Source: an uncultured Spirochaetales bacterium (GTDB lineage Bacteria > Myxococcota_A > UBA9160 > UBA6930). Taken from it: a stretch of DNA of 64,000 bases. The stretch lies in assembly GCA_964501435.1 (NCBI GenBank), contig CAZCTH010000008.1, forward strand, positions 2,978-66,977. Direction: 5' to 3'. The notes beneath the pieces were generated by a model. The model ran no database searches. It saw only the letters and a list, made by a program, of their open reading frames with translations, and was not told the origin of the DNA. A program made the translations under genes and the position numbers. Of this stretch, positions 18,467 through 38,156 are shown in pieces; positions within the stretch are counted from its first letter, which is position 1, and the number at the start of each line of letters is the position of its first letter.

Positions 18467-18479
18467 CGCCGGTCCGCGT

Positions 18480-19448: not shown

Positions 19449-19490
19449 GGCGCGGCACGGTAGGCCAACCGGATGCGACGCGCGTCGCGC

Positions 19491-21641: not shown

Positions 21642-21826
21642 GGGGCCTCCGGGTGGGATCGGCTGCGCCGCGCGGGCTGCGCACGACGCATTCGTACCGC
21701 AGAGCGGGGCCCGGTGAGAAGGAGCGCGTGCGCGCGGGAGCGTTCCGCCTGCGTTGGCACGCCGCGTCCGCGCGCGGAATCATCGCGCGACCCACCCGCG
21801 CGCTCGCCGCGCCCCGAGGAGCCTCG

Positions 21827-22717: not shown

Positions 22718-22764
22718 GAAAGATTTCGCGCCGTCGAGGACTCGGCGCGCTCGGAGCATCGAGG

Positions 22765-22965: not shown

Positions 22966-23004
22966 GCGGGGTGTCGTGGAACCCGTTTGCGGCGGTCTGT
23001 GGTG

Positions 23005-23028
23005 GAGAGAGAGAGAGAGAGAGAGAGA
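23005..23028. repeat. (GA)12 dinucleotide microsatellite
   Basis: There are 12 uninterrupted GA units, in intergenic DNA about 140 bp upstream of the CDS starting at 23169. Confidence 0.95.
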
Positions 23029-23030
23029 GG

Positions 23031-23065
23031 CGAAGCGCGAGCGCCTTCGAGGCGCTCGCGCTTCG
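23031..23065. repeat. perfect 15-bp-arm palindrome or stem-loop
   Basis: The sequence is CGAAGCGCGAGCGCC-TTCGA-GGCGCTCGCGCTTCG and it directly follows the (GA)12 tract. Confidence 0.9.
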
Positions 23066-23110
23066 TTGGCACGGGGGTGTGCGGGGCGCGGTAGCGTCGC
23101 GGTTTAGGGG

Positions 23111-23157
23111 CTCGTCGGAGTCTCGTTGGCCTCGTTGGTCTCGTGCATCTCGTCGGA
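23111..23157. repeat. periodic CTCGT-N4 repeats (5 copies) directly upstream of a start codon
   Basis: The copies are CTCGTCGGA(gt)CTCGTTGGC CTCGTTGGT CTCGTGCAT CTCGTCGGA. They end 11 nt before ATG 23169 and run into the GGAGGA ribosome-binding motif. Confidence 0.8.
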
Positions 23158-23168
23158 GGATCGGAGCC

Positions 23169-24179: not shown

Positions 24180-24215
24180 CGGCGCGCGCCGGGCGGCGAC
24201 GGACCGCGCGCTCGG

Positions 24216-25634
24216 TCAGCGCGTGCCGAGCACGCGCGCCGCGGCCTCCGCGACGCGGGTGCCCTCGAAGAACTTCGCGTTCGTCCCGCCGAAGAGGCGC
24301 ACCACGTTCTCGAACGCGAACTGGCGGAAGCCGGCCTCGTCCACGAGCCCGTGCTCGACGAGCTCCCACGCTTCGGGCAGGACCTCGCGGAAGTCCGGCA
24401 CGTCCCAGTGCCCGATGTCGCTGGCGAACATCGCGTTGATGCGCGCGCCGAGCGGGTTCACGCGAGCATCGAAGGCGAACGCGTTGGTGGGGTCGTCGGC
24501 CTCGCAGCCGAAGAAGTACTGGCGCGTGAACACGTCGCGCACGTCTTCGGCGCGCGCGATGCCGCTCGCCGCGAAGTCGTCGAGCGCCGCGCGGTCCTCG
24601 CTCGGGTCGGAGAGGAAGGCGAGCGCCTCGTCGAGGCGGCCGAGCCGCTCGCGGAACGCCGGCGGCGCCTCGCGCTCGATCCAGCCCACGAGCTCCGCGC
24701 GATCGAGGTTCGCGGGGTCGTAATGCGCGATCGCCGCGCGGTTGCGCTTCGCGAAGTGGCCGAGGATGTCGGCATACAGCGTGCAGCCCCAAGCGACGCC
24801 GCCCTCGAGGAACGCGAAGCGCAGCTCCGGGAAGCGCCGCGGCACGCCGCCGAAGAAGAGCGAGCGCGCGACCGCCTCGTTGCCCGCGGCGAAGTTGCCG
24901 ACGTGGTTAGCGACGTAGTTGGTGGGCGAGTTGCGCGAGCCGAAGCCGATGCCCGTCGAGTGGAAGGTGGGCGAGACGCCGAGCTCCGCGCAGCGTCGCC
25001 AGAGCGGGTCGTAGTCGTGGGCGCTGTCGAGGCCGAGCCCGTCCACCCAGCGAGCGGCGCGCACGGCCTCGTGGCCAGGCACCGGGCGCAGCACGAGCCC
25101 GCCCATCAGGAAGCCGCGCAGGCCGAGCGTGCCGGTCGCGTAGTCGAGCTCCGCGATGGCCTCCTCGGGCGTGAAGGTGGGGACGATCCCGACGGGCAGG
25201 AGGCGGTCGCGGTACTCGCCATAACACTCGGCGTAGTAGCGGTTGCAGGCGCGGGCGAGGGCGCGGCGCAGCTCGTCGTCGTCGAGCGCCATCGGCACGA
25301 GGCCGAGCGTCGGGTAGAGGATCGCGACGTCGAGGCCGATCTCGTCCATGCGGCCGTGCAGCAGCTTCGGGATCGTGGCGGTCGCGCGGTCGAGGGTGTT
25401 GCGCGCGGGCAGGCCCCACCAGCCGTGGCGCGCGAGCCCGAGCGAGCGCCGGGTGCGGACGTCGAGCGCGCGCGTCAGCGCCGAGCCGCGCGTGACCCCG
25501 TCGAAGCGCTTCGCGACGCCCTCGCCCGCGAGCTCGGCGAGGAAGTCGCGCACGAGCGGAACGAACTCGAGCAGGTGGCCGTCGGCGTCCACGACGGGAT
25601 GCGTGAGGCGGGCGCGGATCTGCGCGGTGTTCAT
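24216..25634 (-). CDS. amidohydrolase family protein (amidohydrolase_2 / ACMSD-like)
   Basis: ATG 25634 is residue 56 of ORF 24216..25799 (-). The protein reads MNTAQIRARLTHPVVDADGHLLEF...LDVAILYPT...FHSTG...FASDIGHWD. Confidence 0.8.
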   Translation of the reverse strand: MNTAQIRARLTHPVVDADGHLLEFVPLVRDFLAELAGEGVAKRFDGVTRGSALTRALDVRTRRSLGLARHGWWGLPARNTLDRATATIPKLLHGRMDEIGLDVAILYPTLGLVPMALDDDELRRALARACNRYYAECYGEYRDRLLPVGIVPTFTPEEAIAELDYATGTLGLRGFLMGGLVLRPVPGHEAVRAARWVDGLGLDSAHDYDPLWRRCAELGVSPTFHSTGIGFGSRNSPTNYVANHVGNFAAGNEAVARSLFFGGVPRRFPELRFAFLEGGVAWGCTLYADILGHFAKRNRAAIAHYDPANLDRAELVGWIEREAPPAFRERLGRLDEALAFLSDPSEDRAALDDFAASGIARAEDVRDVFTRQYFFGCEADDPTNAFAFDARVNPLGARINAMFASDIGHWDVPDFREVLPEAWELVEHGLVDEAGFRQFAFENVVRLFGGTNAKFFEGTRVAEAAARVLGTR

Positions 25635-25737
25635 GGCGGGCTCCGGGCGCGCGTTCGCGGCGCGTCGCGATGCTGCGCGAGTGCGGCGTCCGTCGCCAGA
25701 CGGCGCGCTAGCGTCGCGCGCTCTCGAGGAGGGTTCC

Positions 25738-26511
25738 ATGAGTCTCGCAGGACGCGTCGCGCTCGTGACCGGCGGCAGCCGCGGCATCGGGCGCGCCATC
25801 GCGCTCGGCCTCGCCGAGGACGGCGCCGACGTCGCGGTGAACTACCGCAAGGACGAAGCGGCCGCGCGCGAGACGGTCGCGGCGATCGAGAAGCTCGGGC
25901 GTCGCGCGCGCATGTACGCCGCCTCGGTGGACCGCTACGACGAGGACCAGCGCATGGTCGAGGCGATCGTGCGCGACTTCGGCCACGTGGACATCCTCGT
26001 CAACAACGCGGGCATCGCGAGCCGCGGCAACACGGTCGAGAAGACCGATCCCGCGGAGATGGAGCGCGTCGTCCGCACCCACGCGTTCGGCGCGCACCAT
26101 CTGTGCCAGCTCGTGCTGCCGAGCATGAAGGCGCGCCCGCGCGGCGACATCGTGATGATCTCGAGCGCTGCGACGATCAGCCACGGTGCGTCCGGCGCGC
26201 CCTACAACATGGCCAAGGCCGCGCTCGAGGCGCTCGCCTTCACGCTCGCGAAAGAGGTCCGCCACAAGAACGTGCACGTGAACGTGGTGGCGCCGGGCCT
26301 GGTGGAGACCGAGATGGGTCGGCGGCTCGCGAAGGCGGCCGCCGGCGTGCAGGACATCCACGAGCTCGATCGCACGATGCCGTTCGGGCGCGTGTGTCAG
26401 CCCGAGGACGTCGCGAACGCGGTGCGCTTCTTCGTCTCGGACAAGGCGTCCTACGTGACGGGCGAGCGCCTCTACGTGTACGGCGGCGGCCAGGAGATGC
26501 GGCGCGCCTGA
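25738..26511 (+). CDS. SDR family oxidoreductase
   Basis: ATG 25738 lies in the frame of ORF 25348..26511. Motifs: VTGGSRGIGRA, NNAG, YNMAKAA. Confidence 0.9.
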   Translation: MSLAGRVALVTGGSRGIGRAIALGLAEDGADVAVNYRKDEAAARETVAAIEKLGRRARMYAASVDRYDEDQRMVEAIVRDFGHVDILVNNAGIASRGNTVEKTDPAEMERVVRTHAFGAHHLCQLVLPSMKARPRGDIVMISSAATISHGASGAPYNMAKAALEALAFTLAKEVRHKNVHVNVVAPGLVETEMGRRLAKAAAGVQDIHELDRTMPFGRVCQPEDVANAVRFFVSDKASYVTGERLYVYGGGQEMRRA

Positions 26512-26523
26512 CGCGCGTCGCCG

Positions 26524-27771
26524 CTAGGCGGGCTCGAAGCGCACCGGCATCGACTCGATGCCGAGCACGAACGTGCCGCGCCGGCGCGGAAGCGGCCGCG
26601 CGGGCTCGGCGAGCTCCACGTGCCGCCAGGCGGCCAGCAGCTCCTCGAACAGCACCCGCAGCTCGAGGCGAGCGAGCTGCGCGCCGAGGCAGTGGTGGCG
26701 GCCGAAGCCACCGAAGGCGACGTGGTCGTTCGGGCTGCGCTCGACGTCGAAGCGGAACGGATCGGCGAAGGCGCGCGCGTCGCGGTTCGCGGACGGGTAG
26801 AGCAGCAGCAGGCGGTCGCCGCTGCGGATGCGCTGGCCGCGCAGCTCCGTGTCCCGCGTTGCGGTGCGGTTCATGTTCTGGATTGGCGTCACCCAGCGCA
26901 GCATCTCTTCCACGGCGCTCGGCACGAGGGCGGGGTTCGCGCGCAGCTTCGCGAGCTCGGCGGGGTGCTCGAGCAACGCGGCGAGTCCGCCGGAGATCAC
27001 GTGGCGCGTGGTCTCGTCGCCGCCCACGAGCACGAGCATCGTCTCGAAGATCAAGTCGTCTTCGCTGAGCCGCTCTCCGTCGACGACGGCGTTGACCGCG
27101 AGGCTCACGAGATCCTCGCCGTTCCCGCCGCGCCGTTCGGCGATCACGCGCTGGATGTAGCCTGCATACGCGATCACGGCGTCGCGCACCTGATCGGCGA
27201 TCTCCGCGTTGCCGGTCGCGAACAGGTCCGACCAATGCAGCAGCGTCGCGTGGTCCGCCTCGGGCAGGCCCATCAGCTCGCCGATCATGTACATCGGCAG
27301 CGGCGTCGCGACGTCGCGCACGAAGTCGCACGCGCCGCGCTCCGCGACGCCCGCGAGCAACTCGCGCACCTTGCGGCGCAGGAACGGCTCGTGGTCCTGA
27401 ACGCGGCGCTGCGTGAAACCCGCGGAGATGATGCGGCGCCGCAGCACGTGCTGCGGCGGATCCATGTTGATCATGCTCGGCACCGAGCTGTCCGGTCGCG
27501 AGCCCTCGCCCGAGCAGAACGTCTCCCAGTCGCGCGCGACGGTCATCAGGTCGTCGTAGCGGGCGACCCCCCAGATCCCGGTGGCGTCGTCCCAGTAGAC
27601 GGGCGCGTGTTCCCGCATCCACGCCATGCGCTCGTGCGGGTCGGCGTAGAAGTCCGGCGAGAGCAGCCGCACGTCCTCGCGCGTCGGGTGAGCCGACGCG
27701 CGCGTGCCCGGCCGCAGCGTGCGCGTGTAGCGCCCGTCGTCGGCTTGGGTCGGGGCAGAGTTCTCGGCCAT
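26524..27771 (-). CDS. cytochrome P450
   Basis: ATG 27771 is residue 64 of ORF 26524..27960 (-). The I-helix is VLVGGDETT, the ExxR motif is EEMLRW, and the heme loop is FGGFGRHHCLGAQLA. Confidence 0.9.
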   Translation of the reverse strand: MAENSAPTQADDGRYTRTLRPGTRASAHPTREDVRLLSPDFYADPHERMAWMREHAPVYWDDATGIWGVARYDDLMTVARDWETFCSGEGSRPDSSVPSMINMDPPQHVLRRRIISAGFTQRRVQDHEPFLRRKVRELLAGVAERGACDFVRDVATPLPMYMIGELMGLPEADHATLLHWSDLFATGNAEIADQVRDAVIAYAGYIQRVIAERRGGNGEDLVSLAVNAVVDGERLSEDDLIFETMLVLVGGDETTRHVISGGLAALLEHPAELAKLRANPALVPSAVEEMLRWVTPIQNMNRTATRDTELRGQRIRSGDRLLLLYPSANRDARAFADPFRFDVERSPNDHVAFGGFGRHHCLGAQLARLELRVLFEELLAAWRHVELAEPARPLPRRRGTFVLGIESMPVRFEPA

Positions 27772-27805
27772 TGCGGTCTCCTGGCGCGCGCATCGATAGC
27801 CCAGC

Positions 27806-27950
27806 CGAGCCGCGAGCGTCCGCGGCTCGCCCGAAACCCCTCGGCGGTGCGCATCCGATCGCGCAACCGCGCGATCGGCCGAGGGTTTCGCACGCGCGCG
27901 GCGGGCTCCGCGCAACGCCGAGGTCTCGCAGGCGCCTCGCAGATGCGAGG
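27806..27950. promoter_or_regulatory. hairpin/palindrome-dense divergent control region (candidate operators or 5'-UTR structures)
   Basis: There are three elements. CGAGCCGCG-N6-CGCGGCTCG lies at 27806-27829. CCGATCGCGC-AACC-GCGCGATCGG at 27855-27878 is nested in the imperfect outer repeat GAAACCCCTCGGC...GCCGAGGGTTTC (27833-27889). CCTCGCA-GA-TGCGAGG lies at 27935-27950. All sit between P450 start 27771 (-) and operon start 28007 (+). Confidence 0.4.
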
Positions 27951-28006
27951 CGTGAGCCACGCAGTTTGTCGTTCAAAGCCCCAGTCGTTCTGACGAATCC
28001 CTCTGC

Positions 28007-29839
28007 GTGAAAATGCGTAGCTCCAATTCTGGGGAAGCGCGCGCCCGTGCGCGCGCGAATCCCCAACAACTCGCGCGGCGCGCCGCGGCGGCGATCGCGC
28101 TCGCGTGCGCGCTGTTCGCCGCCGCACCCGCGCTCGCGGCGACGCCGATCGCGCTCTTCCGCAGCTACGCGGGCAACATCCAGTTCACCGGCACTGCGGG
28201 CACGCTGCGCGCGAGCTCCAACACGGTGAACGCGTGCAACCTGAACGCGTCCGGCGCGGGCGTGCTGAGCGGGCTGCCCGCGGGCGCGACCGTCGTCGCC
28301 GCCCATCTCTATTGGGCGGGTTCCGGCACCACGGTCGACTCGCAGGTGACGCTCGCGCGCTCTGGCGGCGGCGGCAGCACCACCGTCACCGCCAGCCGCA
28401 CCTTCACGGAGACGTACCTCAACGGCGCCACGCTGCTGAGCTTCTTCTCCGGCTACGCCGACGTCACCTCGTTCGTCACCGGCAACGCAACGTACACGCT
28501 CTCGAACCTCGCCGTGAACAGCGGCAACCCGTACTGCTCGTCCGCGGCGGTCGTCTCGGGGTGGAGCCTCGTCGTCGTCTACCGCCTCGCCTCGGCGCCG
28601 CTGCGCGTGGTGAACATCTCGGACGGCTTCCAGGGCTTCCGCGGCGCGCAGCTCTCGATCGTCGACAACAACTTCGAGGTTCCCCCCTCGGGCATCGACG
28701 CGTTCGTCTCCCACGTCACCTGGGAAGGCGACACGGAGAACTCGACGGCGCTCGGCGGCTTCACCGAGAACCTGCGATTCCAGGGGACCGCGCTCACCGA
28801 CGCGCTCAATCCGCTCAACAACCAATTCAACTCGGCGAGCAACATCACCGGCAGCGCGACCACCTGGGGCGTCGACTTCGACCGGTACAACGTCACGTCG
28901 CTCGTGACGGCCGGCCAGACCTCCGCGACCACGCAGTACTCGAGCGGCGGCGACCTCGTGCTGCTCAGCGCCGAGGTCTTCAGCGTCACCAACGTCCCGA
29001 TCGCGGACCTCTCGATCGCGAAGAGCCACGCGGGGACGTTCACGACCGGCCAGAACGGCGCCTACACCCTCACGGTCTCGAACGCGGGTCCGAGCGCCTC
29101 TTCCGGCACGACGACCGTCACGGACACGCTGCCCGTCGGGCTCTCGTTCGTGTCCGCGAGCGGGACGGGCTGGACCTGCGGTGCGGTCGGCCAGGTCGTG
29201 ACCTGCACGCATGGGGGCGCGATCGCGAGCGGCGCGTCGCTCCCGGCGATCACCCTCACCGTCGCCGTCGCGGCGAACGCGCCGGCCTCGGTCACGAACA
29301 CGGCGACGGTCGCCAACCCCACCTTCGACAACGTCGCCGCCAACGACACCGCGAGCGACGTCACCGCGATCTCGCAGTTGCCCGACGTGCTCGTGATCAA
29401 GAGCGCGGTCGTGACGGGCGACCCCGTGAACGGCGCGACCAACCCGAAGGCGATCCCTGGCGCGAGCATCCGCTACGCCGTCGCCGTCACCAATCAGGGC
29501 TCCGGAACGCCCACCGCCGACTCCGTGCTCGTCGAGGATCCGCTGCCCGCCGAGCTCGAGCTGTTCGTGAACGGCTTCGGCGGCCCGAGCCCCGTCGCGT
29601 TCGTCGACGGCGCGACGGCGAGCGGCCTCGCGCTGGTGTTCGCCGGACTCGGCAGCGCGGCCGACGACCTCGAGTTCGACGACGGGTCGAACGCCTTCAC
29701 CTACGTGCCGGTGCCCGACGCGGACGGATACGACGCGGCCGTGCGCGCGATCCGCGTGCGCCCGAGCGGGACGTTCGCCGGCGCGAGCGTCGCCGGCGCG
29801 CCGAGCTTCGAGCTGCGCTTCCAGGCGCGCGTGAAATGA
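28007..29839 (+). CDS. secreted DUF11-type ('conserved repeat domain') protein with an unassigned ~330-aa N-terminal beta-rich domain; operon gene 1
   Basis: The ORF is 610 aa, starting at GTG 28007 or ATG 28013. The signal peptide is ...AAAAIALACALFAAAPALA|ATP. A canonical DUF11 module is present (ADLSIAKSHAGTFTTGQNGAYTLTVSNAGPSASSGTTTVTDTLPVGLSFVSASGTGWTC...VTCT). A second Ig-like module follows (VIKSAVVTGDPVNGATNPKAIPGASIRYAVAVTNQG). Confidence 0.8.
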   Translation: MKMRSSNSGEARARARANPQQLARRAAAAIALACALFAAAPALAATPIALFRSYAGNIQFTGTAGTLRASSNTVNACNLNASGAGVLSGLPAGATVVAAHLYWAGSGTTVDSQVTLARSGGGGSTTVTASRTFTETYLNGATLLSFFSGYADVTSFVTGNATYTLSNLAVNSGNPYCSSAAVVSGWSLVVVYRLASAPLRVVNISDGFQGFRGAQLSIVDNNFEVPPSGIDAFVSHVTWEGDTENSTALGGFTENLRFQGTALTDALNPLNNQFNSASNITGSATTWGVDFDRYNVTSLVTAGQTSATTQYSSGGDLVLLSAEVFSVTNVPIADLSIAKSHAGTFTTGQNGAYTLTVSNAGPSASSGTTTVTDTLPVGLSFVSASGTGWTCGAVGQVVTCTHGGAIASGASLPAITLTVAVAANAPASVTNTATVANPTFDNVAANDTASDVTAISQLPDVLVIKSAVVTGDPVNGATNPKAIPGASIRYAVAVTNQGSGTPTADSVLVEDPLPAELELFVNGFGGPSPVAFVDGATASGLALVFAGLGSAADDLEFDDGSNAFTYVPVPDADGYDAAVRAIRVRPSGTFAGASVAGAPSFELRFQARVK

Positions 29840-29853
29840 CACCCCGAGGAGCC

Positions 29854-30885
29854 ATGGCCATGCACCGACACCGCTTCCCCCGCACCCGCGCGCTGCGCGC
29901 GCTCGCGCTCGCGACGTCGGTCGTCGCGCTTTGCGGCGCCGCAGCGCACGCGGTCGGCACCGCGGCCGGCACCGACATCACGAACACCGCGAGCGTCACC
30001 GCCGACGTCGGCGGGTCGCCGGTCACGGCGACCAGCAACCCCAACGTGATCCGCGTCGCCGAGGTGATCGACGTCGACGTCACGCTGCTGTCGGTCGGCA
30101 ACGTGCTCGTCAACTCGCCGTCGAGCGGGCAGGTGCTCACGTTCCGCGTCACCAACACCGGAAACGGCGTGGACCGCTTCGCGCTCACGGTGAACGACGC
30201 GCTCGTCGGCGACGCGTTCGACCCGGTTTTCGCGAGCCTCTGGTTCGACGCGAACGGAAACGCCCTCTACGACGCAGGCGTCGACACGCTCTACACGCCG
30301 GGCCTGAACGACCCGCTGCTCGACGCCAACGCGCCCGCGGCCGACGACGTGGTCGTGTTCGTGCTGAACGACGTGCCGGCCGGCCTCGCGAGCGGCGACC
30401 TCGGCGACAGCGAGCTGCTCGCCGCGTCCGCCACCGGCGTGGGCGCGCCCGGCACGGTGATCGCCGGCGCGGGCGAGGCGGGCACCGACGCGATCGTGGG
30501 GACGAGCGGTGGCGACGACCTCGCGCAGGGGACTTATCAAGTCTCGTCGGTCGCGCTCGCGATCGCCAAGACCTCCACCGTGGCGGATCCGTTCGGCGGG
30601 TCGCAGCCGATCCCGGGCGCGACCATCACCTACTCGCTCGTCGTGACGGTCGCCGGCGCGGGCAGCGCCGACGCCGCGACGCTCAGCGACGCGATCCCGG
30701 CCAACACGACCTACGTCGCCGGCTCGATGACGCGCAACGCGGCCGCGCTCACGGACGCGAGCGACTCGCCCGTGGACGAGGCGGACTTCGGGGTGACGAC
30801 CGCCGGGGCCATCACGGTCGGTCTCGGAAATCTGCCGGCGGGCGGTCCGCCGGAAACGATCACGTTCCAAGTGACGATCAATTAG
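29854..30885 (+). CDS. secreted DUF11-like repeat protein; operon gene 2
   Basis: ATG 29854 (or 29860) follows GAGGAG, in the frame of ORF 28105..30885. The signal peptide is RALALATSVVALCGAAAHA|VG. The mature N-terminus reads GTAAGTDITNTASVTADVGG. Other motifs are VTNTGNGVDRFAL, WFDANGNALYDAGVD and the C-terminal module AIAKTSTVADPFGGSQPIPGATITYSLVV. Confidence 0.75.
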   Translation: MAMHRHRFPRTRALRALALATSVVALCGAAAHAVGTAAGTDITNTASVTADVGGSPVTATSNPNVIRVAEVIDVDVTLLSVGNVLVNSPSSGQVLTFRVTNTGNGVDRFALTVNDALVGDAFDPVFASLWFDANGNALYDAGVDTLYTPGLNDPLLDANAPAADDVVVFVLNDVPAGLASGDLGDSELLAASATGVGAPGTVIAGAGEAGTDAIVGTSGGDDLAQGTYQVSSVALAIAKTSTVADPFGGSQPIPGATITYSLVVTVAGAGSADAATLSDAIPANTTYVAGSMTRNAAALTDASDSPVDEADFGVTTAGAITVGLGNLPAGGPPETITFQVTIN

Positions 30886-30896
30886 GGAGGGAAGCC

Positions 30897-31391
30897 ATGA
30901 AACGAGCTTCGATTCGATTCGGTGCGGCGACGGTCGCCGCGCTGGCTCTGGCGAGCGCGGCGCTCGGCGAGGCGGGCAGCATCGAGCTGCGCGCGCGCGC
31001 CGAGAAGCGGCTCTTCGTGCAGCAGCCCGACGGCACGGCGAGCGAGCAGTTCGTGCCGGTCGGGAAGGTCGTGCCGGGCGACGTCGTCGCCTACACGATC
31101 GAGGCGCGCAACGTCTCGACGTCGGGCGCGGATCGCGTGGTGATCACGGATCCGATCCCGGCCGAGATGAAGTACGTCGAGGGCAGCGCCGCGGCGACGG
31201 GCGCGCAGCTGCTCTTTTCCGTCGACGGCGGCTTCCGCTTCGGCTCGCCCGACGAGCTGACCGTCGCGAACGAGGACGGCACCCGCCGCCCTGCGGTCGC
31301 CAGCGACTACACGCACGTGCGCTGGGTGTTCGCGACCCCCCTCGCCCCGGCCGAGCAGCGGTCGGTGCGCTTCCTGGCGCAGCTCGAGTAG
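30897..31391 (+). CDS. small secreted single-domain DUF11-like protein; operon gene 3
   Basis: ATG 30897 follows GGGAGGG, in the frame of ORF 29931..31391. The protein reads MKRASIRFGAATVAALALASAALGEAG...VVPGDVVAYTIEARNVSTSGADRVVITDPIPAEMKYVEGS. Confidence 0.75.
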   Translation: MKRASIRFGAATVAALALASAALGEAGSIELRARAEKRLFVQQPDGTASEQFVPVGKVVPGDVVAYTIEARNVSTSGADRVVITDPIPAEMKYVEGSAAATGAQLLFSVDGGFRFGSPDELTVANEDGTRRPAVASDYTHVRWVFATPLAPAEQRSVRFLAQLE

Positions 31392-31436
31392 CGCGCCGGC
31401 CTTTCGGTTCTCGTGATCCTCAACAAGGAGAAAGTC

Positions 31437-32591
31437 ATGCAACGGGATTGGAAACGCAGCGTTCGAGCCGGGGTGGTCCTGGCGTCGTTCGCAATCGCGG
31501 CCGCGCAGGGTGCGCAGGCCGCCGGGACGGCCTCGGGCACGTCCGTCGACAACCGCGCCACCGTGTCGTACGCGGTCGGCGCCACCGCGCAGCCGGTGAT
31601 CGAGTCGTCGCCCACGGGCAACTCGACCTCCGGCGCCGGCAACGGAACCGACACGAGCTTCGTGGTGGACAACCGCATCGACCTCACCGTCGCGGAGCTG
31701 TCCGGCAGCTACACGACGGTGGCGGCTGGCGGCACGAACGAGGTTCTCGTCTACACGGTGACCAACACCGGCAACGGGACGCAGGACTACTCGCTCGCCG
31801 CGGCCGACAACGCGACGGATCCGTTCGGCGGGACCGACAACTTCGACGCGACGCCGGTGGGCGTGTTCGTCGACGCGAACGCCAACGGCACCTACGACGC
31901 GGGTGTCGATCTCGCGACGTTCGTGGACGAGCTGGCGGCGGACGCAGCGGCCACGGTGTTCGTGGTGCGCAACATTCCGGGCGGCCAGGCGAACGGCGAC
32001 ATCTCGGCCGTGACGCTGACTGCGCAGGTCGCGCAGGGCGGCGGCGTGGGCGCGCAGGGCGCCGACATCCTGACCGACGACTCGGCGATCGCCGACGACC
32101 CGGCCACGGTGCAGATCGTGTTCGCGGACGCGGCGGGCGACACCGACGCGGCCAACGACGGCGCGCACTCCGACAGCGATGCCTATCGCGTGGGTGCGGC
32201 GCAGATCACCGTGTCGAAGAGCTCGGCGGTGGTGAGCGACCCGATCAACGGGGCGACGAATCCGAAGGCGATCCCCGGCGCGACGGTCGAGTACACCGTC
32301 GTGGTCAGCAACGCGGTCGGCGCGAGCGCGACCGCGACGAACGTGCAGGTGGCGGACAGCCTGAACGCGGAGATCACGGCCGGTACGGTCGCGTACGACG
32401 CGAACGGCTACGCGGCCGGCGCGGGCATGCAGGTGACGGCGCCGAACATCGCGGGCGGCGCTCCGACCGCGCTGTCGAACGGAGTGGACGCCGACTCCGG
32501 CGACTTCTCCGCGAACGTCGTGACCGTGGGCGGCATCTCGCTCAACCCGGGCGAGTCGGCCACGGTCCGCTTCCGAGTCGTCATTCAGTAA
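31437..32591 (+). CDS. secreted DUF11-like repeat protein, paralog of gene 2; operon gene 4
   Basis: ATG 31437 follows AAGGAGA, in the frame of ORF 31413..32591. The signal peptide is VVLASFAIAAAQGAQA|AG. The mature N-terminus reads GTASGTSVDNRATVSYAVGA. Other motifs are VTNTGNGTQDYSL, FVDANANGTYDAGVD and TVSKSSAVVSDPINGATNPKAIPGATVEYTVVVSN. Confidence 0.75.
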   Translation: MQRDWKRSVRAGVVLASFAIAAAQGAQAAGTASGTSVDNRATVSYAVGATAQPVIESSPTGNSTSGAGNGTDTSFVVDNRIDLTVAELSGSYTTVAAGGTNEVLVYTVTNTGNGTQDYSLAAADNATDPFGGTDNFDATPVGVFVDANANGTYDAGVDLATFVDELAADAAATVFVVRNIPGGQANGDISAVTLTAQVAQGGGVGAQGADILTDDSAIADDPATVQIVFADAAGDTDAANDGAHSDSDAYRVGAAQITVSKSSAVVSDPINGATNPKAIPGATVEYTVVVSNAVGASATATNVQVADSLNAEITAGTVAYDANGYAAGAGMQVTAPNIAGGAPTALSNGVDADSGDFSANVVTVGGISLNPGESATVRFRVVIQ

Positions 32592-32597
32592 CGACTC

Positions 32598-35500
32598 GTG
32601 AGCGCTCGGCTTCCGATCCCGATGCACGAGCCCCGGCGGGCCCGCGCGGAGTCCTCGCGACTCCGCGCGCGGCCCGTTCGGGGCGCCGTGCGTTCGCGCA
32701 TCGGAAGCTGGCTCTGCGCGTGGCTGGTCGCGCTCTTCGCGCTCGCCAGCCACGCGCAGACGCCCGCCGGCACGGTCATCGCGAACACCGCCCAGGGCGT
32801 CTACACGCCGCCCAGCGGCATCCCGACGACGGTGCTCTCCAACACGGACGCGATCACGACGGCGGCGCTGCGCACGCCGTCCGCGACCGAGATCTTCCAC
32901 TTCGCGCCCGGCGCGCCCGGTTCGTTCGCGACGAACGTCGGGCCCGCGCAATGCAGCGCGTCCGGCAGCGCGGCCGGCCCGTTCGCCGCCGCGCCGAACC
33001 CCACCGATTTCTCGGGCGCTCCGATCAATCTCGGCGCGCCCGTCGACCTGCTCGCAGGCGGCGCCTACCACCAGGGCGAAGCGCTGTTCCTGCGCGTCGT
33101 GGACGCCGATCAGAACGCGAACCCGCTCGTCGCCGAGACCGCAGTGATTACGGTCGCGTCGCTCACGACGGGCGACGTCGAAGTGCTCCTCGCCGCAGAG
33201 ACGGGCCCGAGCACTGGCGTCTTCGTCGCCTACCTGATGAGCGGGGCGCCGCCTCCGGTGAGCGGCGACTGCCGCCTCGCGGTGAGCGCGGGGGAAACCT
33301 TCGTCGCGAGCTACCTCGACCCCGCCGACGGCACCGACAGCTCGTCGAGCGGCGCGCTCGTCGATCCCCTCGGCGTCGTGTTCGACAGCGCCACCGGCGC
33401 GCCGGTGAGCGGCGCGGTCGTCACGCTGATCGACGCGGCGAGCGGCCTGCCCGCGACGGTCTTCGGCGACGACGGCGTGTCGAGCTACCCCGCGAGCGTC
33501 ACGAGCGGGGGCACCGTCACGGATTCCGGCGGAACGACCTACGCGTTCGCGCCGGGGCGCTTCCGCTTCCCGTTCGTCGCGCCCGGGACGTATCGCCTGC
33601 AAGTTGTGCCGCCGCCCAGCCATGCGTTTCCTTCGCTCGTCGCCGACGCTGCCCTCCAGCTCCTTCCGGGCGCACCGTATGCGCTGGGCCCGGGCTCGCG
33701 CGGCAACGACTTCGTCGTCCCGCTCGGGCCGATCTTCCAGGTCGACGTGCCGCTCGACTCCGCAGCTCCCGGCGGAGCGCTCACCCTCGCGAAGCGCGCG
33801 AATCGCGCGACCGCGGGGGTCGGCGAGTTCGTGCAGTACGTGCTCCTCGTTTCGGCGCCGAGCGGCAGCGCGGGCCAGCCCGCGACGCTCGAGGATCGGC
33901 TCCCGCGCGGCTTCCGCTTCGAGCGCGGCTCGCTGCGCATCGGCGGCGCGCCGGCGCCCGATCCCGCGATCGCGCAGGACGCGCGCACGCTCGCGATCCC
34001 GCTCGGCGTGCTCGCGCCCGGCGCGCAGGTCGAGGTGCGCTACGTGGCGCGGCTCGGGCCGGAAGCACGCGGCGGACGCGCGGTGAACGAGGCGATCGTG
34101 CGCGCGGGCGCGCTCGCCTCGAACCCGGCGCGCGCCGTCGTACTGGTCACGCGCGATCTCTTGAACGAGCGCGCGACACTGGTCGGCCGCGTGATGGAAG
34201 GCGACTGCGGCGCGGACCTGCGCGACGAGCATGCCGGCGTCGCGGGCGTGCGCGTCTACCTCGAGGACGGCACGCACGTCGTGACGGACGAGCAGGGCCG
34301 CTTCCACTTCCCGGTCGTCGCCGCGGACACCCACGTCGTCCAGCTCGACACGCAGACGCTGCCCGAGGGCTTCATGCCGCGCGCCTGCGCCGGCAACCGC
34401 TTCGCGGGCCGCTCGTACTCGCAGTTCGTCGAGCCGCAGCGCGGCTCGCTGTGGCGCAGCGACTTTTTCCTCGAGCGGACACCGAGCGGCCGTGGACTCC
34501 ACCAACGGCTCACCGTCACGCCGGCCGGCGATCGCCAGGACGTCGAGCTGAACGTCACGGTGGTCGGTGCGACGCTGAACGCCGTCTCCGGCCTCGTGCT
34601 GCTGCCGAGCGGGCTCGCGCCGCTGCCGGGCAGCGTCGAGGTCGCCGGCCCCGGCGCACGCTTCGACGCGGAGAGCCCGGCGCCGACGGTCCGCGCGGCC
34701 GCCCTCGCGCCCGGCGACGTCGTGACGCTGCGCTTCGCGTTGGCCGCGCCGGGCGACACGCAATTGAATGCGCTCGCACGCGGGAAGCGCGACACCGGCG
34801 AGCCCGTCCAGACGCCCGTGGTGAAGAGCGAGCTCGCCGAGCCGCGCACCTACACGCAGAGCGCGACCTGGGAGGACGCGCCCGCCGCGGCCTCGCCACC
34901 GGCCGAGCCCGCACCGCCCGAAGCCGCATTCGGCGACGCCTGGCTGGCGACCGCCACGCCCGCGAACGCGTGGCTGTACCCCGAGGCGGGCTTCGTTCCG
35001 AAGATCCCGTCGGTGAAGCTCGGTGTGCAGCACGACCCCGCGCTGCGCGTACGCCTGTTCCGCAACGGCGAGCTGGTGAGCCCGCTCAACTTCGACGGCG
35101 TGCAGAAGAACGCGGCGAAGACGGTCGCGGTGAGCCGCTGGCGCGGCGTCGATCTCGCCGAGGGCCCCAACAAATTCGTGGTCGAGCTGCTGAACGCGGA
35201 CGGCGCGGTCGTCGAACGCCTCGAGCAGCGCGTCCACTCCTCGGGCCCGCCGGTGCGCGGCGAGCTGATGCCGACGCTCTCGACCCTCGTCGCGGACGGC
35301 CGCACCGCGCCGGTCGTCGCGGTGCGGCTCTTCGACCGCTGGGGCCAGCCCGTGCGCGAGGGCATGAGCGGACCGCTCCAGGTCGCGTCGCCGCACCGCG
35401 CGCGCGAGTCGGTGGAGCGCGCGCGCGAGCGGCAGCTCGCCGTGCCGAATCTCGGTGCGACGAGCTTCGTGGTCGGCGCGGGCGGCCTCGCGCGCATCGC

Positions 35501-38156
35501 GCTCGAGCCCACCACGACGATGGGCCGCTTCGCGCTCACGCTTCAGCTCGCGGACGACCGCCGCGAGGAGATCGAGGGCTGGCTCTCGCCGGGCCGCCGC
35601 GAGCTCACGCTCGTGGGCGTCGGCAGCGGCACGCGCGGCTTCGGCGACACGCGGGGCAACGGCTCCGCCGCCCGAGCGGCGGGCCTCGACGCCAGCGGAC
35701 GGGACGGACGCGTCGCGCTGTTCGCGACCGGCACGGTGCGCGGCGAGTGGCAGGTGACCGCGGCCTACGACTCGCGCCCGAGCCAGGCGTCGCCGGGCGA
35801 TCGCTTGCAGCGCACGCTCGACACCCAGGAGCACTTCGCGCTCTACGGCGACGACACGCAGGAGGGCTACGAGGCCCCGACTTCCGACGGCGTGTTCCTG
35901 AAGCTCCAGCGCGATCGCTTCTATGCGCTCTACGGCGACTACACCACGGCGCTCGGCGAGACCGAGCTCGCGCGCTACGACCGCATCGTCACCGGCCTGA
36001 AGAGCGAGTACTACGGCGAGGCGCTGCGCTGGAACGCGTTCGCGACCGACACCGGGCAGGCGTTCGCGCGCGACGAGATTCGCGGCAACGGCACCTCGGG
36101 CCTGTACCGCCTCTCGCAGGCGCCGATCGTGATCGGCAGCGAGCGCGTGCGGATCGAGGTGCGCGATCGCTTCCGGCCGGGCCGCGTGGTCGAGGCGCGG
36201 CCGCTCGTCGCGCAGATCGACTACGACGTGGATCCGTTCGCGGGCACGCTCCACTTCCGCGAGCCGGTGGCCGGCCGCGACGAGCGCTTCAACCCCGTCT
36301 TCATCGTCGTCGAGTACGAGACCGCGGGCGGCGGCGACGCGCTCTCCGGCGGCGGTCGCGTCGCCGGACGCTGGCTCGGAGGCGCCCTCGAGCTCGGCGC
36401 GACCGGCGTCCACGAGGGGCGGGGTGCACAGTCGGGCGACCTGGTCGGCCTGGATGCCACTTATCAATGGGACGAGGCGACGAAGCTGCGCGCCGAGTGG
36501 GCGGGTAGCGATGGCGACAGCTTCGCGGGCCCGCGGCGCGGGCTCGGCTGGCTCGTCTCTGCGGAGCACCGCACGCAGGCGCTCGAGCTGGTGGCGAGCG
36601 CGCGCGAGCAAGAGGGCGGCTTCGGGCTCGGGCAGCTCTCGGCGATCGACCAGGGCGCGCGGCGCATCGGCGTGGACGGGCGCTGGCGCTTCCGCGAGCA
36701 CTGGTCGCTCGTGGGCAGCGGCTTCCACGAGCAGAACCTCGCCACGAACGACGACCGTCAGATCGCCGAGTCGATCGTCGAGTGGGACGACACGCACCGC
36801 GGGCTGCACGCGGGCGCGCGCTACGTGCGCGATTCGGCGCCGCTCGCCGCCGCGAACACGGCGCAACTGCTGCTCGGCGGCCACCACGGTTTCTTCGGCG
36901 AGCGGCTCACGCTGCGCGCGGGAACCGAGATCGGCTTCGGCTCGGAAGGGCCGCACGGCGACTACTCGGATCGCGTGGCGGTGGGCGCCGACTTCAAGGC
37001 GACCGACTGGCTGCGGCTCTTCGCCGAGCACGAGCTGACGTTCGGCGACGTGCATTCCGGGCAGGACACGCGGGTCGGCGCGGCCGTGACGCCCTGGGAG
37101 GGCGGCCAAGTCACCGCGAGCCTCGGGCAGCAGGCGCTACCGAGCGCGACGGCCGGGACCGCGCTCTCGCCCGAGAGCGCGCCGGCGGCGGGCCGCGAGT
37201 ACGGGCCGCGCACCTACGCGAACCTCGGCGTGGCGCAGCACTGGAACCTCGCTCAGTACTGGGGCTTCGACCTCGCGGTGGACCGCTCGCAGACGCTGAA
37301 GGGCGCCGGGGTCGCGCCGTTCGACGCGAGCGTGCCAGCCTACTCAGGCGTCGGCGCCACCACCGACGACTACACCGCGGTGTCGCTCGGCGCGGGCTAC
37401 AGCCGCGACGGCGTCGCGTTCACGAGCCGCGCGGAGACGCGCTTCGGCGAGCTCGAGGACCTGTGGAGCTTCACGCTCGGTGCGCTCAGCGACCAGGACC
37501 GCACGTCCTACGCCGGCCACGTCGAGCTGTTCCTCAGCGACCGCGCGGGCGCGAGCCCCGTCACGGAAGACATCTACGCCACGCGCTTCTCGCTCGCGCA
37601 TCGGCCGCTCGACACGCGCTTCATCGTGCTCGAGCAGGTCGAGTACGAGCACGGCCTCACCGAGGGCGGCGGCCTGAACACCCGCGGCGACCGCGTGCTG
37701 AACCACCTGAAGCTCAACTACACCCTCGACGACCGCACGCAGCTCTCCTGGCAGTACTCGGCGAAGTGGGTCTCCGAGCGCATCGACGGCGAGCGCTACG
37801 CGTCGATCGGCCACCTGTTCGGCGTCGAGGCGCGCGTCGACGTCGCCGACGGCTGGGACTTCGCGGTGGCGGCGCGCGCGCGCCAGCTCAGCTCGGGCCG
37901 CGCCGACGACGGCAACTACTCGGTCGGCGCGAGCGTCGGTCGGCTGCTGATGAAGAACGTGTGGGCGAGCGCCGGCTACAACGCGGTCGGCTTCCGCGAC
38001 GAGGACTTCTCGCGGGCGGACTACACCGCCAAGGGCCCGTTCGTGCGCCTGCGCGTGAAGGTGGACCAGGACTCGATCCGCGAGTGGCTCGAGTTCTCGC
38101 CGCGCCTCGCCGGCCGCATGCGCGGCGCCTTCGCCGCGAACGGCGCGCAGCGCTGA
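32598..38156 (+). CDS. giant (1852 aa) multidomain surface protein: DUF11-like, CnaB/SdrD-B-like and Big-like modules followed by an ~850-aa putative outer-membrane beta-barrel region; operon gene 5
   Basis: ORF 32598..38156 starts at GTG, with an alternative ATG at 32622. The signal peptide is IGSWLCAWLVALFALASHA|QTPAGTVIANTAQGVYTPPSG. Prealbumin-like modules include VVFDSATGAPVSGAVVTLID...GTYRLQVVPP and VAGVRVYLEDGTHVVTDEQGRFHFPVV. There is a DUF11 module (LTLAKRANRATAGVGEFVQYVLLVSAP...LEDRLPRGFRFERGSLRIGG) and an Ig-like module (STLVADGRTAPVVAVRLFDRWGQPV). From about 35600 onward the sequence has alternating hydrophobic/polar strands rich in G, Y, D and R, down to ...WASAGYNAVGFRDEDFSRADYTAKGPFVRLRVKVD. 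Confidence 0.8.
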   Translation: MSARLPIPMHEPRRARAESSRLRARPVRGAVRSRIGSWLCAWLVALFALASHAQTPAGTVIANTAQGVYTPPSGIPTTVLSNTDAITTAALRTPSATEIFHFAPGAPGSFATNVGPAQCSASGSAAGPFAAAPNPTDFSGAPINLGAPVDLLAGGAYHQGEALFLRVVDADQNANPLVAETAVITVASLTTGDVEVLLAAETGPSTGVFVAYLMSGAPPPVSGDCRLAVSAGETFVASYLDPADGTDSSSSGALVDPLGVVFDSATGAPVSGAVVTLIDAASGLPATVFGDDGVSSYPASVTSGGTVTDSGGTTYAFAPGRFRFPFVAPGTYRLQVVPPPSHAFPSLVADAALQLLPGAPYALGPGSRGNDFVVPLGPIFQVDVPLDSAAPGGALTLAKRANRATAGVGEFVQYVLLVSAPSGSAGQPATLEDRLPRGFRFERGSLRIGGAPAPDPAIAQDARTLAIPLGVLAPGAQVEVRYVARLGPEARGGRAVNEAIVRAGALASNPARAVVLVTRDLLNERATLVGRVMEGDCGADLRDEHAGVAGVRVYLEDGTHVVTDEQGRFHFPVVAADTHVVQLDTQTLPEGFMPRACAGNRFAGRSYSQFVEPQRGSLWRSDFFLERTPSGRGLHQRLTVTPAGDRQDVELNVTVVGATLNAVSGLVLLPSGLAPLPGSVEVAGPGARFDAESPAPTVRAAALAPGDVVTLRFALAAPGDTQLNALARGKRDTGEPVQTPVVKSELAEPRTYTQSATWEDAPAAASPPAEPAPPEAAFGDAWLATATPANAWLYPEAGFVPKIPSVKLGVQHDPALRVRLFRNGELVSPLNFDGVQKNAAKTVAVSRWRGVDLAEGPNKFVVELLNADGAVVERLEQRVHSSGPPVRGELMPTLSTLVADGRTAPVVAVRLFDRWGQPVREGMSGPLQVASPHRARESVERARERQLAVPNLGATSFVVGAGGLARIALEPTTTMGRFALTLQLADDRREEIEGWLSPGRRELTLVGVGSGTRGFGDTRGNGSAARAAGLDASGRDGRVALFATGTVRGEWQVTAAYDSRPSQASPGDRLQRTLDTQEHFALYGDDTQEGYEAPTSDGVFLKLQRDRFYALYGDYTTALGETELARYDRIVTGLKSEYYGEALRWNAFATDTGQAFARDEIRGNGTSGLYRLSQAPIVIGSERVRIEVRDRFRPGRVVEARPLVAQIDYDVDPFAGTLHFREPVAGRDERFNPVFIVVEYETAGGGDALSGGGRVAGRWLGGALELGATGVHEGRGAQSGDLVGLDATYQWDEATKLRAEWAGSDGDSFAGPRRGLGWLVSAEHRTQALELVASAREQEGGFGLGQLSAIDQGARRIGVDGRWRFREHWSLVGSGFHEQNLATNDDRQIAESIVEWDDTHRGLHAGARYVRDSAPLAAANTAQLLLGGHHGFFGERLTLRAGTEIGFGSEGPHGDYSDRVAVGADFKATDWLRLFAEHELTFGDVHSGQDTRVGAAVTPWEGGQVTASLGQQALPSATAGTALSPESAPAAGREYGPRTYANLGVAQHWNLAQYWGFDLAVDRSQTLKGAGVAPFDASVPAYSGVGATTDDYTAVSLGAGYSRDGVAFTSRAETRFGELEDLWSFTLGALSDQDRTSYAGHVELFLSDRAGASPVTEDIYATRFSLAHRPLDTRFIVLEQVEYEHGLTEGGGLNTRGDRVLNHLKLNYTLDDRTQLSWQYSAKWVSERIDGERYASIGHLFGVEARVDVADGWDFAVAARARQLSSGRADDGNYSVGASVGRLLMKNVWASAGYNAVGFRDEDFSRADYTAKGPFVRLRVKVDQDSIREWLEFSPRLAGRMRGAFAANGAQR

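Follow-up and report, generated by a model that had tools for sequence, protein, structure and literature searches.

How a bacterium with two membranes might build a surface fiber from a locus that offers no recognizable assembly machinery is the question raised by five consecutive genes, here called g1 to g5, in a 64-kb stretch of DNA (the window; contig CAZCTH010000008.1 of an uncultured bacterium that GTDB places in the Myxococcota_A). A first-pass annotation, made from the letters of the window, had read these genes as an operon of secreted DUF11-type repeat proteins ending in a giant outer-membrane protein and had proposed an uncharacterized surface-fiber or adhesin system. Our follow-up is computational throughout, using letters, profiles and predicted models only, and it supports that reading. 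The main mechanistic clue goes beyond the annotation: judged from sequence, the isopeptide-forming triad of the DUF11 domain, now named CLIPPER, appears to be split between polypeptides.

DUF11 has been renamed CLIPPER in Pfam and has a CnaA-like immunoglobulin (Ig) fold in which a Lys and an Asn form an intramolecular isopeptide bond catalyzed by an Asp; this K/D/N triad was verified crystallographically in PDB 9IFR (PMC12617251). The first-pass annotation had assigned a DUF11 module to all five proteins. This holds for g1 to g4, which score 47.5, 34.9, 43.4 and 25.3 bits against TIGR01451 (cut-off 24 bits). At 20 bits g5 falls just under the cut-off, yet the g5-family profile matches the CLIPPER domain 9IFR in the PDB (E = 4.5e-6). 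PF01345 is above threshold in g1 (73 bits, residues 334-451) and g3 (29 bits). A complete triad within one domain is present in g1 (K339/D373/N431) and in g5 (K399/D433/N497), and profile alignment sets the Asn, Lys and Asp of the g5-family domain in register with N806, K715 and D748 of 9IFR. The g1 CLIPPER domain had no match in the PDB by phmmer. Exhaustive phmmer searches with g3 were unusable for counting systems, their matches being dominated by giant tandem-DUF11 proteins.

In each of g1, g2 and g4, the C-terminal domain retains the first-strand Lys and the Asp of a DxLP-type motif and ends before the Asn-bearing strand. Each of these acceptor proteins terminates after a strand of the form F-x-[VL]-x-[FV]-x-V, with no conserved Asn beyond it. 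A donor motif containing an Asn, (A/P)GTxIxNxAxVxY, opens the mature N-termini of g2, g4 and g5, a few residues past the signal peptide cleavage site; the N-terminal segment consists of this Asn strand and one further strand. The positions of acceptors and donors are given in Table 1.

These residues are well conserved. In g4, N39, K261 and D307 are invariant among 85 homologues; within the locus orthologues, N39 is kept in 64 of 67 sequences, K261 in 68 of 68 and D307 in 65 of 68. Both K239 and D279 of g2 are present in all orthologues compared (50/50 each). The g1 acceptor retains the Lys, a DP pair, PKxIPG and D..P at 90% consensus (30 sequences, the window g1 and 29 orthologues), and at the same consensus no conserved Asn is found near the g1 end. 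Additionally, the donor motif occurs in none of the g1-like proteins (0/29). Sampled g5 homologues carry a PPGTxIxNTA motif after the signal peptide, with the Asn present in at least 93 of 119 full-length proteins (>1600 aa). We found in g5 no acceptor that has the Lys and lacks an Asn of its own, and the stalk consensus shows no other conserved Lys strand. As an intramolecular partner of K261 in g4, N359 was considered and rejected, being conserved in fewer than 50% of sequences.

A separate feature of the acceptors is a loop past the Lys strand, DPxNGxxNPKAIPGA, which is near-invariant in g1 (residues 465-486, window 29399-29480) and g4 (residues 261-282, window 32217-32300; D268, P269, K277 and P280); g2 does not have it. 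A further invariant residue of g4 is D353. The loop and D353 might provide a metal site or an additional cross-link.

Profile alignments place the break at the Asn strand. By hhalign, the match of the g4 acceptor profile to a complete CLIPPER profile of 130 columns, derived from the stalk domain of g5, breaks off at column 95, on the strand just before the Asn strand. When their own N-terminal segment was appended to the g4 acceptors, the hhalign alignment ran without gaps across the junction and the score rose from 42.3 to 47.0. Here FRVVIQ, continued across the junction by AGTASGTSVDNRATV, is matched to YV.eV.AGa..G.avNeA, and N39 falls on the isopeptide Asn of the template. Similarly, the g2 acceptor alone covers positions 7-94 of Pfam DUF7927 (132 positions) and positions 7-122 with a donor strand appended. 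Chimeras of acceptor and donor extended the coverage of Pfam profiles and gained 3-8 bits in four of five cases; the C-terminal domain of g4 (g4C) joined to the g5 donor gained none. Single-sequence chimeras of g2C or g3 with the g2 and g4 donors gained 5-10 units by hhalign, mostly above shuffled-donor controls, and the g5 donor gave less.

Docking in trans is favored because g1 is an orphan acceptor, with conserved Lys and Asp and no donor motif in 29 orthologues, and because g5 is a donor left without an acceptor: the one CLIPPER domain of g5 that has a Lys also has its own Asn. It is also favored because pairing in trans restores the strand order of tandem CLIPPER domains, in which the Asn strand comes next after strands 1-7 of the unit before it. 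We consider trans complementation with an intermolecular isopeptide bond the most likely reading of the split triad.

That the locus encodes a multi-subunit surface fiber or adhesin system anchored by g5 is, in our view, highly probable. A more specific proposal, toward which we lean, is a fiber complemented by donor strands in trans and locked by covalent isopeptide bonds, with g5 as its conduit. All five proteins would be exported by Sec, as the signal peptides seen in their sequences indicate, and g5 would be inserted in the outer membrane with its C-terminus in the periplasm. The N-terminal strand of one subunit would complete the C-terminal domain of the subunit ahead, and a spontaneous intermolecular Lys-Asn bond would lock the joint. 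Chain polarity would be that of chaperone-usher pili. On this scheme g1 would be the tip, since it is acceptor only and has a variable lectin or beta-helix head; g2 and g4 would be adaptor and shaft, since each has both donor and acceptor; and g5, at the base, would end the fiber and anchor it covalently, since it is donor only. Leaving tip-first, the subunits would pass the outer membrane by way of the wide barrel of g5, the g5 donor strand would terminate the chain, and the g5 stalk would then follow through its own pore, in the manner of an autotransporter linker. This export route seems most likely because no other secretion gene is co-conserved, and g5 would then be both anchor and export platform. 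Because its Lys is usually absent, g3 might, more speculatively, be a cap or a chaperone-like factor to which donor strands bind without a covalent link. The function served would be robust adhesion of environmental diderm bacteria to surfaces or polysaccharides.

We also raise, as a tentative extension, that the locus could represent an undescribed class of diderm pilus that is independent of chaperones, sortases and ATP. The fiber would consist of split CLIPPER subunits and be covalent throughout, with g5 as usher-like conduit, terminator and anchor and g3 as an 'inverse chaperone'. In such a class g5 would anchor the fiber covalently to the outer membrane, and often also to peptidoglycan, and g3 would be a Lys-less domain that holds donor strands.

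Several observations weigh against a covalent fiber exported by g5. Among 47 orthologues of g2, donor position 44 is Asn in 35 and Ser in 9. Single-sequence chimeras of g1C and g4C showed little or no gain by hhalign, and the profile-score gains from appending donors appear modest as a whole. The AlphaFold2 monomer of g4 counts in favor of the proposal, being all-beta and confident (predicted local distance difference test, pLDDT, 93; predicted template modeling score, pTM, 0.77) and having an ordered N-terminal strand (pLDDT 95, residues 31-60), like that of self-complemented pilin models. A predicted monomer does not, however, tell self-complementation from strand exchange, and the placement of N39 beside K261 and D307 comes from alignment and not from model geometry. 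Within a linear chain g3 appears to be a misfit, as a second acceptor-only protein that mostly lacks the Lys and Asp. Lastly, the g5 export route follows only from the absence of other candidates, and general systems encoded elsewhere, such as a type II secretion system (T2SS), could possibly export the subunits.

The compact g4 monomer, with its ordered N-terminal strand, and the g2 donor Asn that is not invariant would both fit a reading in cis, in which the N-terminal strand of g2 or g4 completes its own C-terminal domain as a circular permutation with an intramolecular cross-link. These would then be independent CLIPPER proteins, g5 being a self-contained fibrillar adhesin anchored in the outer membrane and the small proteins being surface or periplasmic accessories, bound to it non-covalently or exported by a general pathway. 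A precedent is an Acinetobacter protein of 2129 aa that combines CLIPPER repeats and an OmpA-like domain and has been drawn as a single-chain fibrillar adhesin (PMC12617251). However, pairing in cis leaves unexplained both the conserved orphan Lys and Asp of g1, whose 29 orthologues are without a donor strand, and the conserved orphan Asn strand of g5. It also needs the same circular permutation in every paralogue, whereas pairing in trans recreates the strand order of a tandem array, and strict co-conservation with a fixed gene order argues for a physical complex. We regard this explanation, the main alternative, as rather unlikely.

Two further explanations start from g5. As an envelope-structural complex, g5 would tether the outer membrane to peptidoglycan like Deinococcus SlpA, and the small proteins would form a coat or surface layer (S-layer)-like array. 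The best Foldseek template modeling (TM) scores of the g5 barrel are indeed to Deinococcus SlpA/SDBC, most homologues have a C-terminal OmpA domain, and one stalk repeat matches 8c8k, a 'Cell surface protein'. Those TM-scores are nevertheless low and generic, and Pfam detects no SLH domain in g5. The variable lectin and beta-helix heads of g1 suggest that ligands are bound, pairing of donors with acceptors should produce linear chains and not a lattice, and the system is a dispensable-looking island among metabolic genes; we judge an envelope role improbable. Very improbable, in our estimate, is an outer-membrane uptake or export channel resembling SusC/SusD or TonB-dependent transporters, with the small proteins capturing substrates for a g5 pore. 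The CarboxypepD_reg domain of g5, found also in SusC-type transporters, and the TonB-dependent receptors and SusC among the Foldseek matches are compatible with it. Yet g5 has no Plug or TonB_dep_Rec match in Pfam and no TonB box, although a genuine receptor in the window was easily detected, and its barrel has far more than 22 strands. Isopeptide triads and a tandem Ig-like stalk are, moreover, hallmarks of mechanical, adhesive proteins (PMC12617251).

Co-conservation of the genes, expected by the first-pass annotation, was borne out. Among loci with enough flanking sequence, about 55 have g2, g3, g4 and g5 in this order; they are drawn from at least 6 phyla or classes (Myxococcota, Gamma-, Beta-, Delta- and Zetaproteobacteria, Nitrospirota and Lentisphaeria). 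The order also holds in a subfamily with g5 proteins of 2300-2400 aa. Dozens of genomes that are far apart in phylogeny share this arrangement, which is therefore not a product of chance. The nearest relatives of the window are in Myxococcota (76-82% identity). Gammaproteobacterial hosts include Steroidobacteraceae (among them the cultured Povalibacter uvarum DSM 26723), Woeseiaceae, Lysobacter, Arenimonas and Methylococcaceae; other hosts are Gallionella, Nitrotoga, Sulfuritalea, Zetaproteobacteria, Geobacter, Desulfuromonadales, Desulfatitalea, Nitrospirota and Lentisphaeria. In total, the g5 family numbers at least 584 proteins in a clustered database, and at least 530 g5-related loci were found in contigs representing one genome per species. 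Names of the cluster members are uninformative, reading only 'OmpA family protein' or 'uncharacterized repeat protein'. Individually, g2 occupies the same position in about 50 loci, g3 always lies between g2 and g4 (57 loci), and g4, with 966 homologues, is conserved directly upstream of g5. A g1-type protein occurs in 29 loci, located upstream or downstream of the core or divergent to it. All-against-all clustering of the open reading frames (ORFs) of 80 loci from the genome scan revealed no further widely shared gene family, and no PapD-like chaperone, sortase or SipW-type peptidase is co-conserved in the related loci. A neighboring MacB/FtsX-type transporter was considered as a partner and rejected because it is not co-conserved. 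Candidate tandem or fused natural variants among long g4-like ORFs were also rejected, their added length being due to over-extended starts.

Variation around the core was seen in individual loci. Two Desulfuromonadales loci (L048:103-13087 and L078:2397-13096) lack g2 and have a g1-like gene followed by g3, g4 and g5; in L048 the end of a second g5-like gene lies just upstream, which suggests tandem systems. In L011, L037 and L065 a g4-like gene takes the place of g2. Loci with long g5 proteins have a divergent response regulator and a hybrid kinase of about 2100 aa (Pkinase, GAF, HisKA) beside the core, and the Desulfatitalea locus has a sigma-54 activator upstream. These genes (L085:1-5259, L086:1-5126 and L002:2725-4158) are possible dedicated regulators; the window has none.

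Each of the smaller proteins has a distinct architecture. Behind its signal peptide, g1 has a variable head (residues ~45-332), a complete CLIPPER domain (334-451) and the C-terminal acceptor domain. Proteins of this type range from 400 to 2600 aa, and the same domain of about 155 aa is always found at the extreme C-terminus. Their heads include L-type lectin, right-handed beta-helix/NosD, Laminin_G_3 with DUF2341, DUF3344 and DUF7933. Swappable heads are typical of tip adhesins. Both g2 and g4 consist of a signal peptide, the donor strand, a middle beta domain and a C-terminal acceptor domain, and the two are paralogues (30-35% identity). By Foldseek, the g4 model resembles only generic tandem Ig-like proteins (TM ~0.25; integrin legs, AgI/II, Saf and CFA/I pilins), and the g4-family profile had no match in the PDB.

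In its mature form g3 has 140 aa. Its Lys37 is K in 11 of 59 orthologues and otherwise mostly V, I or T; the catalytic position 85 is Asn in 51 of 59, and an E-x-E motif is conserved. In the clade of the window, g3 has K37 and D85. No pattern of covariation was found between the g2 donor residue and g3 residues, and the match of g3 to TIGR04089 is sub-threshold (15.6 bits, cut-off 60). Roughly one third of g3 orthologues, mostly from Steroidobacteraceae and other Gammaproteobacteria, have a Cys at the start of the first strand. Those inspected (e.g. L028:5815-6306, L020:5771-6262 and L034:5374-5886) have a second Cys about 45 residues on (..NICD/NVCD..), and this pair may form a disulfide that replaces the isopeptide staple.

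The base protein g5 comprises a signal peptide, the donor strand, an Ig-like stalk and a very large predicted outer-membrane barrel at the C-terminus; donor strand and stalk together take up residues 53-770. Of the stalk modules, the repeat at residues ~139-225 matches the repeated Ig-like domains of 8c8k by family profile (E = 3e-9). The first-pass annotation had listed CnaB/SdrD-B-like and Big-like modules; CarboxypepD_reg alone passes the Pfam threshold, SdrD_B is sub-threshold (17 bits) and Big_1 gave no match. The alignment consensus identifies the beta-sandwich at ~1099-1220 (GDGTSGLYRLS...FIVVEYE) as the most conserved part of the family, and this domain could be a plug-like insert.

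The barrel-like strand alternation that the annotation had seen near the g5 C-terminus is supported by structure prediction. For residues 780-1852, AlphaFold2 (51 sequences) gave a model with pLDDT 80 and pTM 0.71 that has about 32 strands, many, though not all, with alternating hydrophobic and polar residues. GPFVRLRVKV forms the last of them; at this strand the consensus of the family has an aromatic residue at its end. Foldseek matched the barrel to outer-membrane barrels only (SlpA, MtrB, FimD/PapC, SprA, LptD and TonB-dependent receptors). Because all of these TM-scores are ≤0.21, the fold class is clear and the family membership is not; the best are to Deinococcus SlpA/SDBC (8agd, 7zgx and 8ae1, TMq 0.20-0.21), and FimD/PapC reach TMq 0.13-0.19. 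The barrel region has no Pfam match and no PDB match by sequence or family profile, and the whole g5 sequence likewise had none in the PDB. In most g5 homologues of 1900-2100 aa a peptidoglycan-binding OmpA domain (PF00691) comes last in the protein, where the window g5 has a helical tail; since these homologues carry a C-terminal OmpA domain, the g5 C-terminus should face the periplasm. The in silico prediction is that g5 inserts in the outer membrane and that its barrel has some 32 strands or more. By standard barrel geometry, we estimate that at least 32 strands give a lumen of several nanometers, wide enough for folded Ig-like domains.

Table 1. Positions in the window of the five genes and of the features assigned to their products.
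Feature	Position (nt)	Strand	Description
g1	28007-29839	+	Candidate tip adhesin, 610 aa; gene-caller start ATG 28013, giving 608 aa
g1 acceptor	29369..29836	+	Residues 455-610; Lys465 (nt 29399), Asp511 (nt 29537); ends ...FELRFQARVK (stop)
g2	29854-30885	+	Putative shaft/adaptor subunit, 343 aa; gene-caller start 29860, giving 341 aa
g2 donor	29953..30063	+	Residues 34-70, VGTAAGTDITN44TASVTAD...; Asn44 at nt 29983; right after AHA site
g2 acceptor	30538..30882	+	Residues 229-343; Lys239 (nt 30568), Asp279 (nt 30688); ends ...ETITFQVTIN (stop)
g3	30897-31391	+	164-aa stand-alone acceptor-type domain with signal peptide, without donor strand
g4	31437-32591	+	Candidate main shaft subunit, 384 aa
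g4 donor	31521..31622	+	Residues 29-62, AGTASGTSVDN39RATVSYAVG...; Asn39 at nt 31551
g4 acceptor	32193..32588	+	Residues 253-384; Lys261 (nt 32217), Asp307 (nt 32355); ends ...ATVRFRVVIQ (stop)
g5	32598-38156	+	Putative base protein, 1852 aa; gene-caller start ATG 32622, giving 1844 aa
g5 donor	32754..32873	+	Residues 53-92, AQTPAGTVIAN63TAQGVYT...; Asn63 at nt 32784
g5 stalk	32874..34907	+	Ig repeat, CarboxypepD_reg, complete CLIPPER domain, prealbumin-like module, linker
g5 S-layer-like Ig repeat	33012-33272	+	Residues ~139-225; motif DxDxNxDPxxxExVxV...ETGxxTGxFxG
g5 CarboxypepD_reg	33372-33605	+	Residues 259-336; Pfam 38.4 bits
g5 CLIPPER domain	33780-34106	+	Residues 395-503; triad aligned to 9IFR
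g5 second prealbumin-like module and Pro/Ala linker		+	Residues ~544-592 (module) and ~760-785 (linker)
g5 residues 780-1232	34935..36293	+	Ig-like domains, ~4 barrel-like strands (988-1058), conserved beta-sandwich (~1099-1220)
g5 barrel	36294..38066	+	Residues 1233-1823, ~32 long antiparallel predicted strands; last strand GPFVRLRVKV
g5 helical tail	38067..38153	+	Residues 1824-1852; helices at model positions 1045-1072

We compared this arrangement with known assembly systems. As the first-pass annotation anticipated, profile, sequence and fold searches place the genes in no characterized pilus, autotransporter, two-partner-secretion, TonB or S-layer family. The closest parallels are to chaperone-usher pili of the type 1/P kind (FimH-FimG-FimF-FimA-FimI with FimC/FimD), in which one operon likewise encodes several Ig-like subunits and a large outer-membrane barrel, with no ATPase. 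In those pili N-terminal donor strands, including one on the base subunit, complete the unfinished fold of the subunit before, and the sequence pattern here would fit this, with donors on g2, g4 and g5 and none on g1. Their tip adhesin has a variable lectin head, a pilin domain and no donor strand, so that g1 resembles FimH, and a beta-sandwich may be inserted behind the first strands of the g5 barrel, in the manner of the usher plug. In contrast, the usher family PF00577 and the N- and C-terminal usher domains are unmatched in g5 or its neighbors (Pfam, E ≤ 0.1), and no PapD-like chaperone (PF00345/PF02753) is present in the operon or window or co-conserved in related loci. The g5 barrel has about 32 or more predicted strands versus 24 and is fused to a stalk of about 1200 aa with a donor, which would put usher and anchor in one protein. 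The subunits themselves are CLIPPER/CnaA-like with an isopeptide triad, predicting covalent joints.

Sortase pili of Gram-positive bacteria (SpaA, RrgB and Spy0128) share with the proposed system CnaA/CnaB-type Ig pilins, Lys-Asn isopeptides and a covalent fiber with tip adhesin and base. Unlike them, the host is a diderm, the five proteins have no LPXTG, there is no sortase in the window or related loci, and the predicted bond between subunits would be autocatalytic in a split domain and not made by transpeptidation. Strand exchange with an isopeptide lock has been reported for the Sulfolobus threads (Saci_0406; PMC9715654) and for BsaA of C. perfringens, of the TasA family (10.1101/2024.11.04.621531). 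In both, an N-terminal strand enters the beta-sheet of a neighbor and a covalent isopeptide follows, as we propose here from the conserved split triad. They differ in fold family, in having archaeal or monoderm hosts without an outer membrane, and in using a SipW-type peptidase or unknown machinery; the bond of the threads involves the alpha-amino group and joins subunit n to subunit n+2. Unlike TasA/SipW fibers, the operon has no peptidase gene, nor is one co-conserved, the sub-threshold TIGR04089 match of g3 being the sole resemblance. SpyTag/SpyCatcher and isopeptag/pilin-C are, reportedly, engineered split isopeptide domains (ascribed to Zakeri and Howarth). These pairs also divide a CnaA/CnaB-type domain into a part with Lys and catalytic acid and a short strand with the partner residue, which reconstitute and bond spontaneously, but they are laboratory constructs, whereas the split here would be natural, would occur in several paralogues and would polymerize a fiber.

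The Acinetobacter silvestris protein B9T28_05395 (PDB 9IFR), with CLIPPER repeats of verified K/D/N triad and an OmpA-like C-terminus, resembles g5 in architecture, a full-length likeness drawn from its description only. That protein is one polypeptide with an N-terminal adhesive domain, whereas here the distal parts are separate products with orphan halves of the triad. A giant barrel is not discussed in the CLIPPER paper (PMC12617251). Autotransporters and other type V systems similarly combine an N-terminal passenger with a C-terminal outer-membrane barrel, and the passenger is presumed to move through or beside its own barrel. Pfam detects no PF03797, POTRA/TpsB or intimin barrel domain in g5, however, its barrel is about three times larger than their 12-16 strands, and partner subunits are added. 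In contrast to type V (Bacteroidota) pili, lipoprotein-type signals and FimA/Mfa Pfam matches are absent. TonB/SusC transporters are set apart by PF07715 and PF00593, both absent from g5 and both found by the same search in the receptor at 3955-6882. A full-text literature search, whose coverage was not exhaustive, returned no paper in which the operon, the split domain or the barrel is described.

At the level of the DNA, most of what the first-pass annotation had said of the genes stood. Because the window is about 72% G+C, raw ORF lists are crowded with shadow ORFs, and genes were told from these by a frame plot of third-position GC (GC3) together with the lists. The five co-directional genes all lie on the + strand, with GC3 of 0.9-0.97 in the coding frame. 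The annotated gaps of 14, 11, 45 and 6 nt hold with the longest starts; gene-caller starts in identical public contigs lie downstream for g1, g2 and g5, and the gaps become 20, 11, 45 and 30 nt. Clear Shine-Dalgarno motifs had been claimed for four genes, and we count three, upstream of g2 (GAGGAG), g3 (GGGAGG) and g4 (AAGGAG), none being found 5' of g1 and g5. Signal peptides on all five proteins were recognized by inspection, each with an n-region, a hydrophobic core and an AxA-like site. That the window holds no chaperone, PapC-type usher, sortase, type I secretion system or T2SS ATPase, or two-partner-secretion partner was also confirmed, by profile scans over all 64 kb. A scan for promoters and terminators and an Rfam search returned nothing.

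The leader of g1 (window 28007-28138) is long and contains ...QQLARRAAAAIAL..., with an Arg-Arg pair ahead of the hydrophobic core, so that its sequence leaves room for g1 export by the twin-arginine translocation (Tat) pathway, which may operate instead of Sec. No convincing lipobox was seen in g1 to g5; the sole signal-peptide Cys, in g2, follows ...VAL, which is off consensus, and the AHA cleavage site is downstream. LPXTG was likewise absent from all five proteins in a motif check. On these motifs, lipoprotein or LPXTG sorting was rejected. A single broken giant gene was also rejected, given a signal peptide on every ORF, three separate Shine-Dalgarno motifs and an arrangement kept in dozens of genomes.

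The operon is flanked by unrelated metabolic genes. Dense oxidoreductase and catabolic genes surround it (window 12653-27972 and 38173-64000), comprising two cytochrome P450s, two luciferase-like monooxygenases, an Old Yellow Enzyme-type reductase, a pyrroloquinoline quinone (PQQ) dehydrogenase, a sulfatase, an acyl-CoA ligase and several short-chain dehydrogenases/reductases (SDRs) and amidohydrolases. Because the 81%-identical locus L001 has the same flanks, the fiber operon looks like an insertion among metabolic genes. Elsewhere in the window (1697-9221), a TonB-dependent receptor (3955-6882, Plug and TonB_dep_Rec) lies between paralogous DUF3604 proteins (1697-4120 and 6981-9221), and the three could be an uptake or degradation module. 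At 49263-50681, beside a fatty-acid hydroxylase gene, a 472-aa protein consists almost entirely of ankyrin repeats (Ank_2, 155 bits); such proteins are uncommon in free-living bacteria.

We know of no earlier description of an assembly system of this kind in bacteria with two membranes, and to our knowledge the chemistry has been met only as an intramolecular staple or an engineered protein glue. Were both the mechanism and the fused usher-anchor confirmed, the system would merit its own class. If the proposal is true, Gram-negative and other diderm bacteria build covalent surface fibers without sortases, and the outer-membrane assembly machines gain a giant barrel that has no sequence relative or close structural relative among solved proteins. 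The donors and acceptors would also be naturally evolved, orthogonal tag/catcher pairs for protein engineering. On the conservative reading alone, this is a widespread, uncharacterized four- to five-gene surface-protein system with a cultured host, Povalibacter uvarum DSM 26723. A covalent fiber would give a role to a family present in at least 530 species-level genomes, including those of iron oxidizers, metal reducers, relatives of nitrifiers and Gammaproteobacteria of soil and sediment, hosts for which adhesion to minerals and polymers is ecologically relevant.

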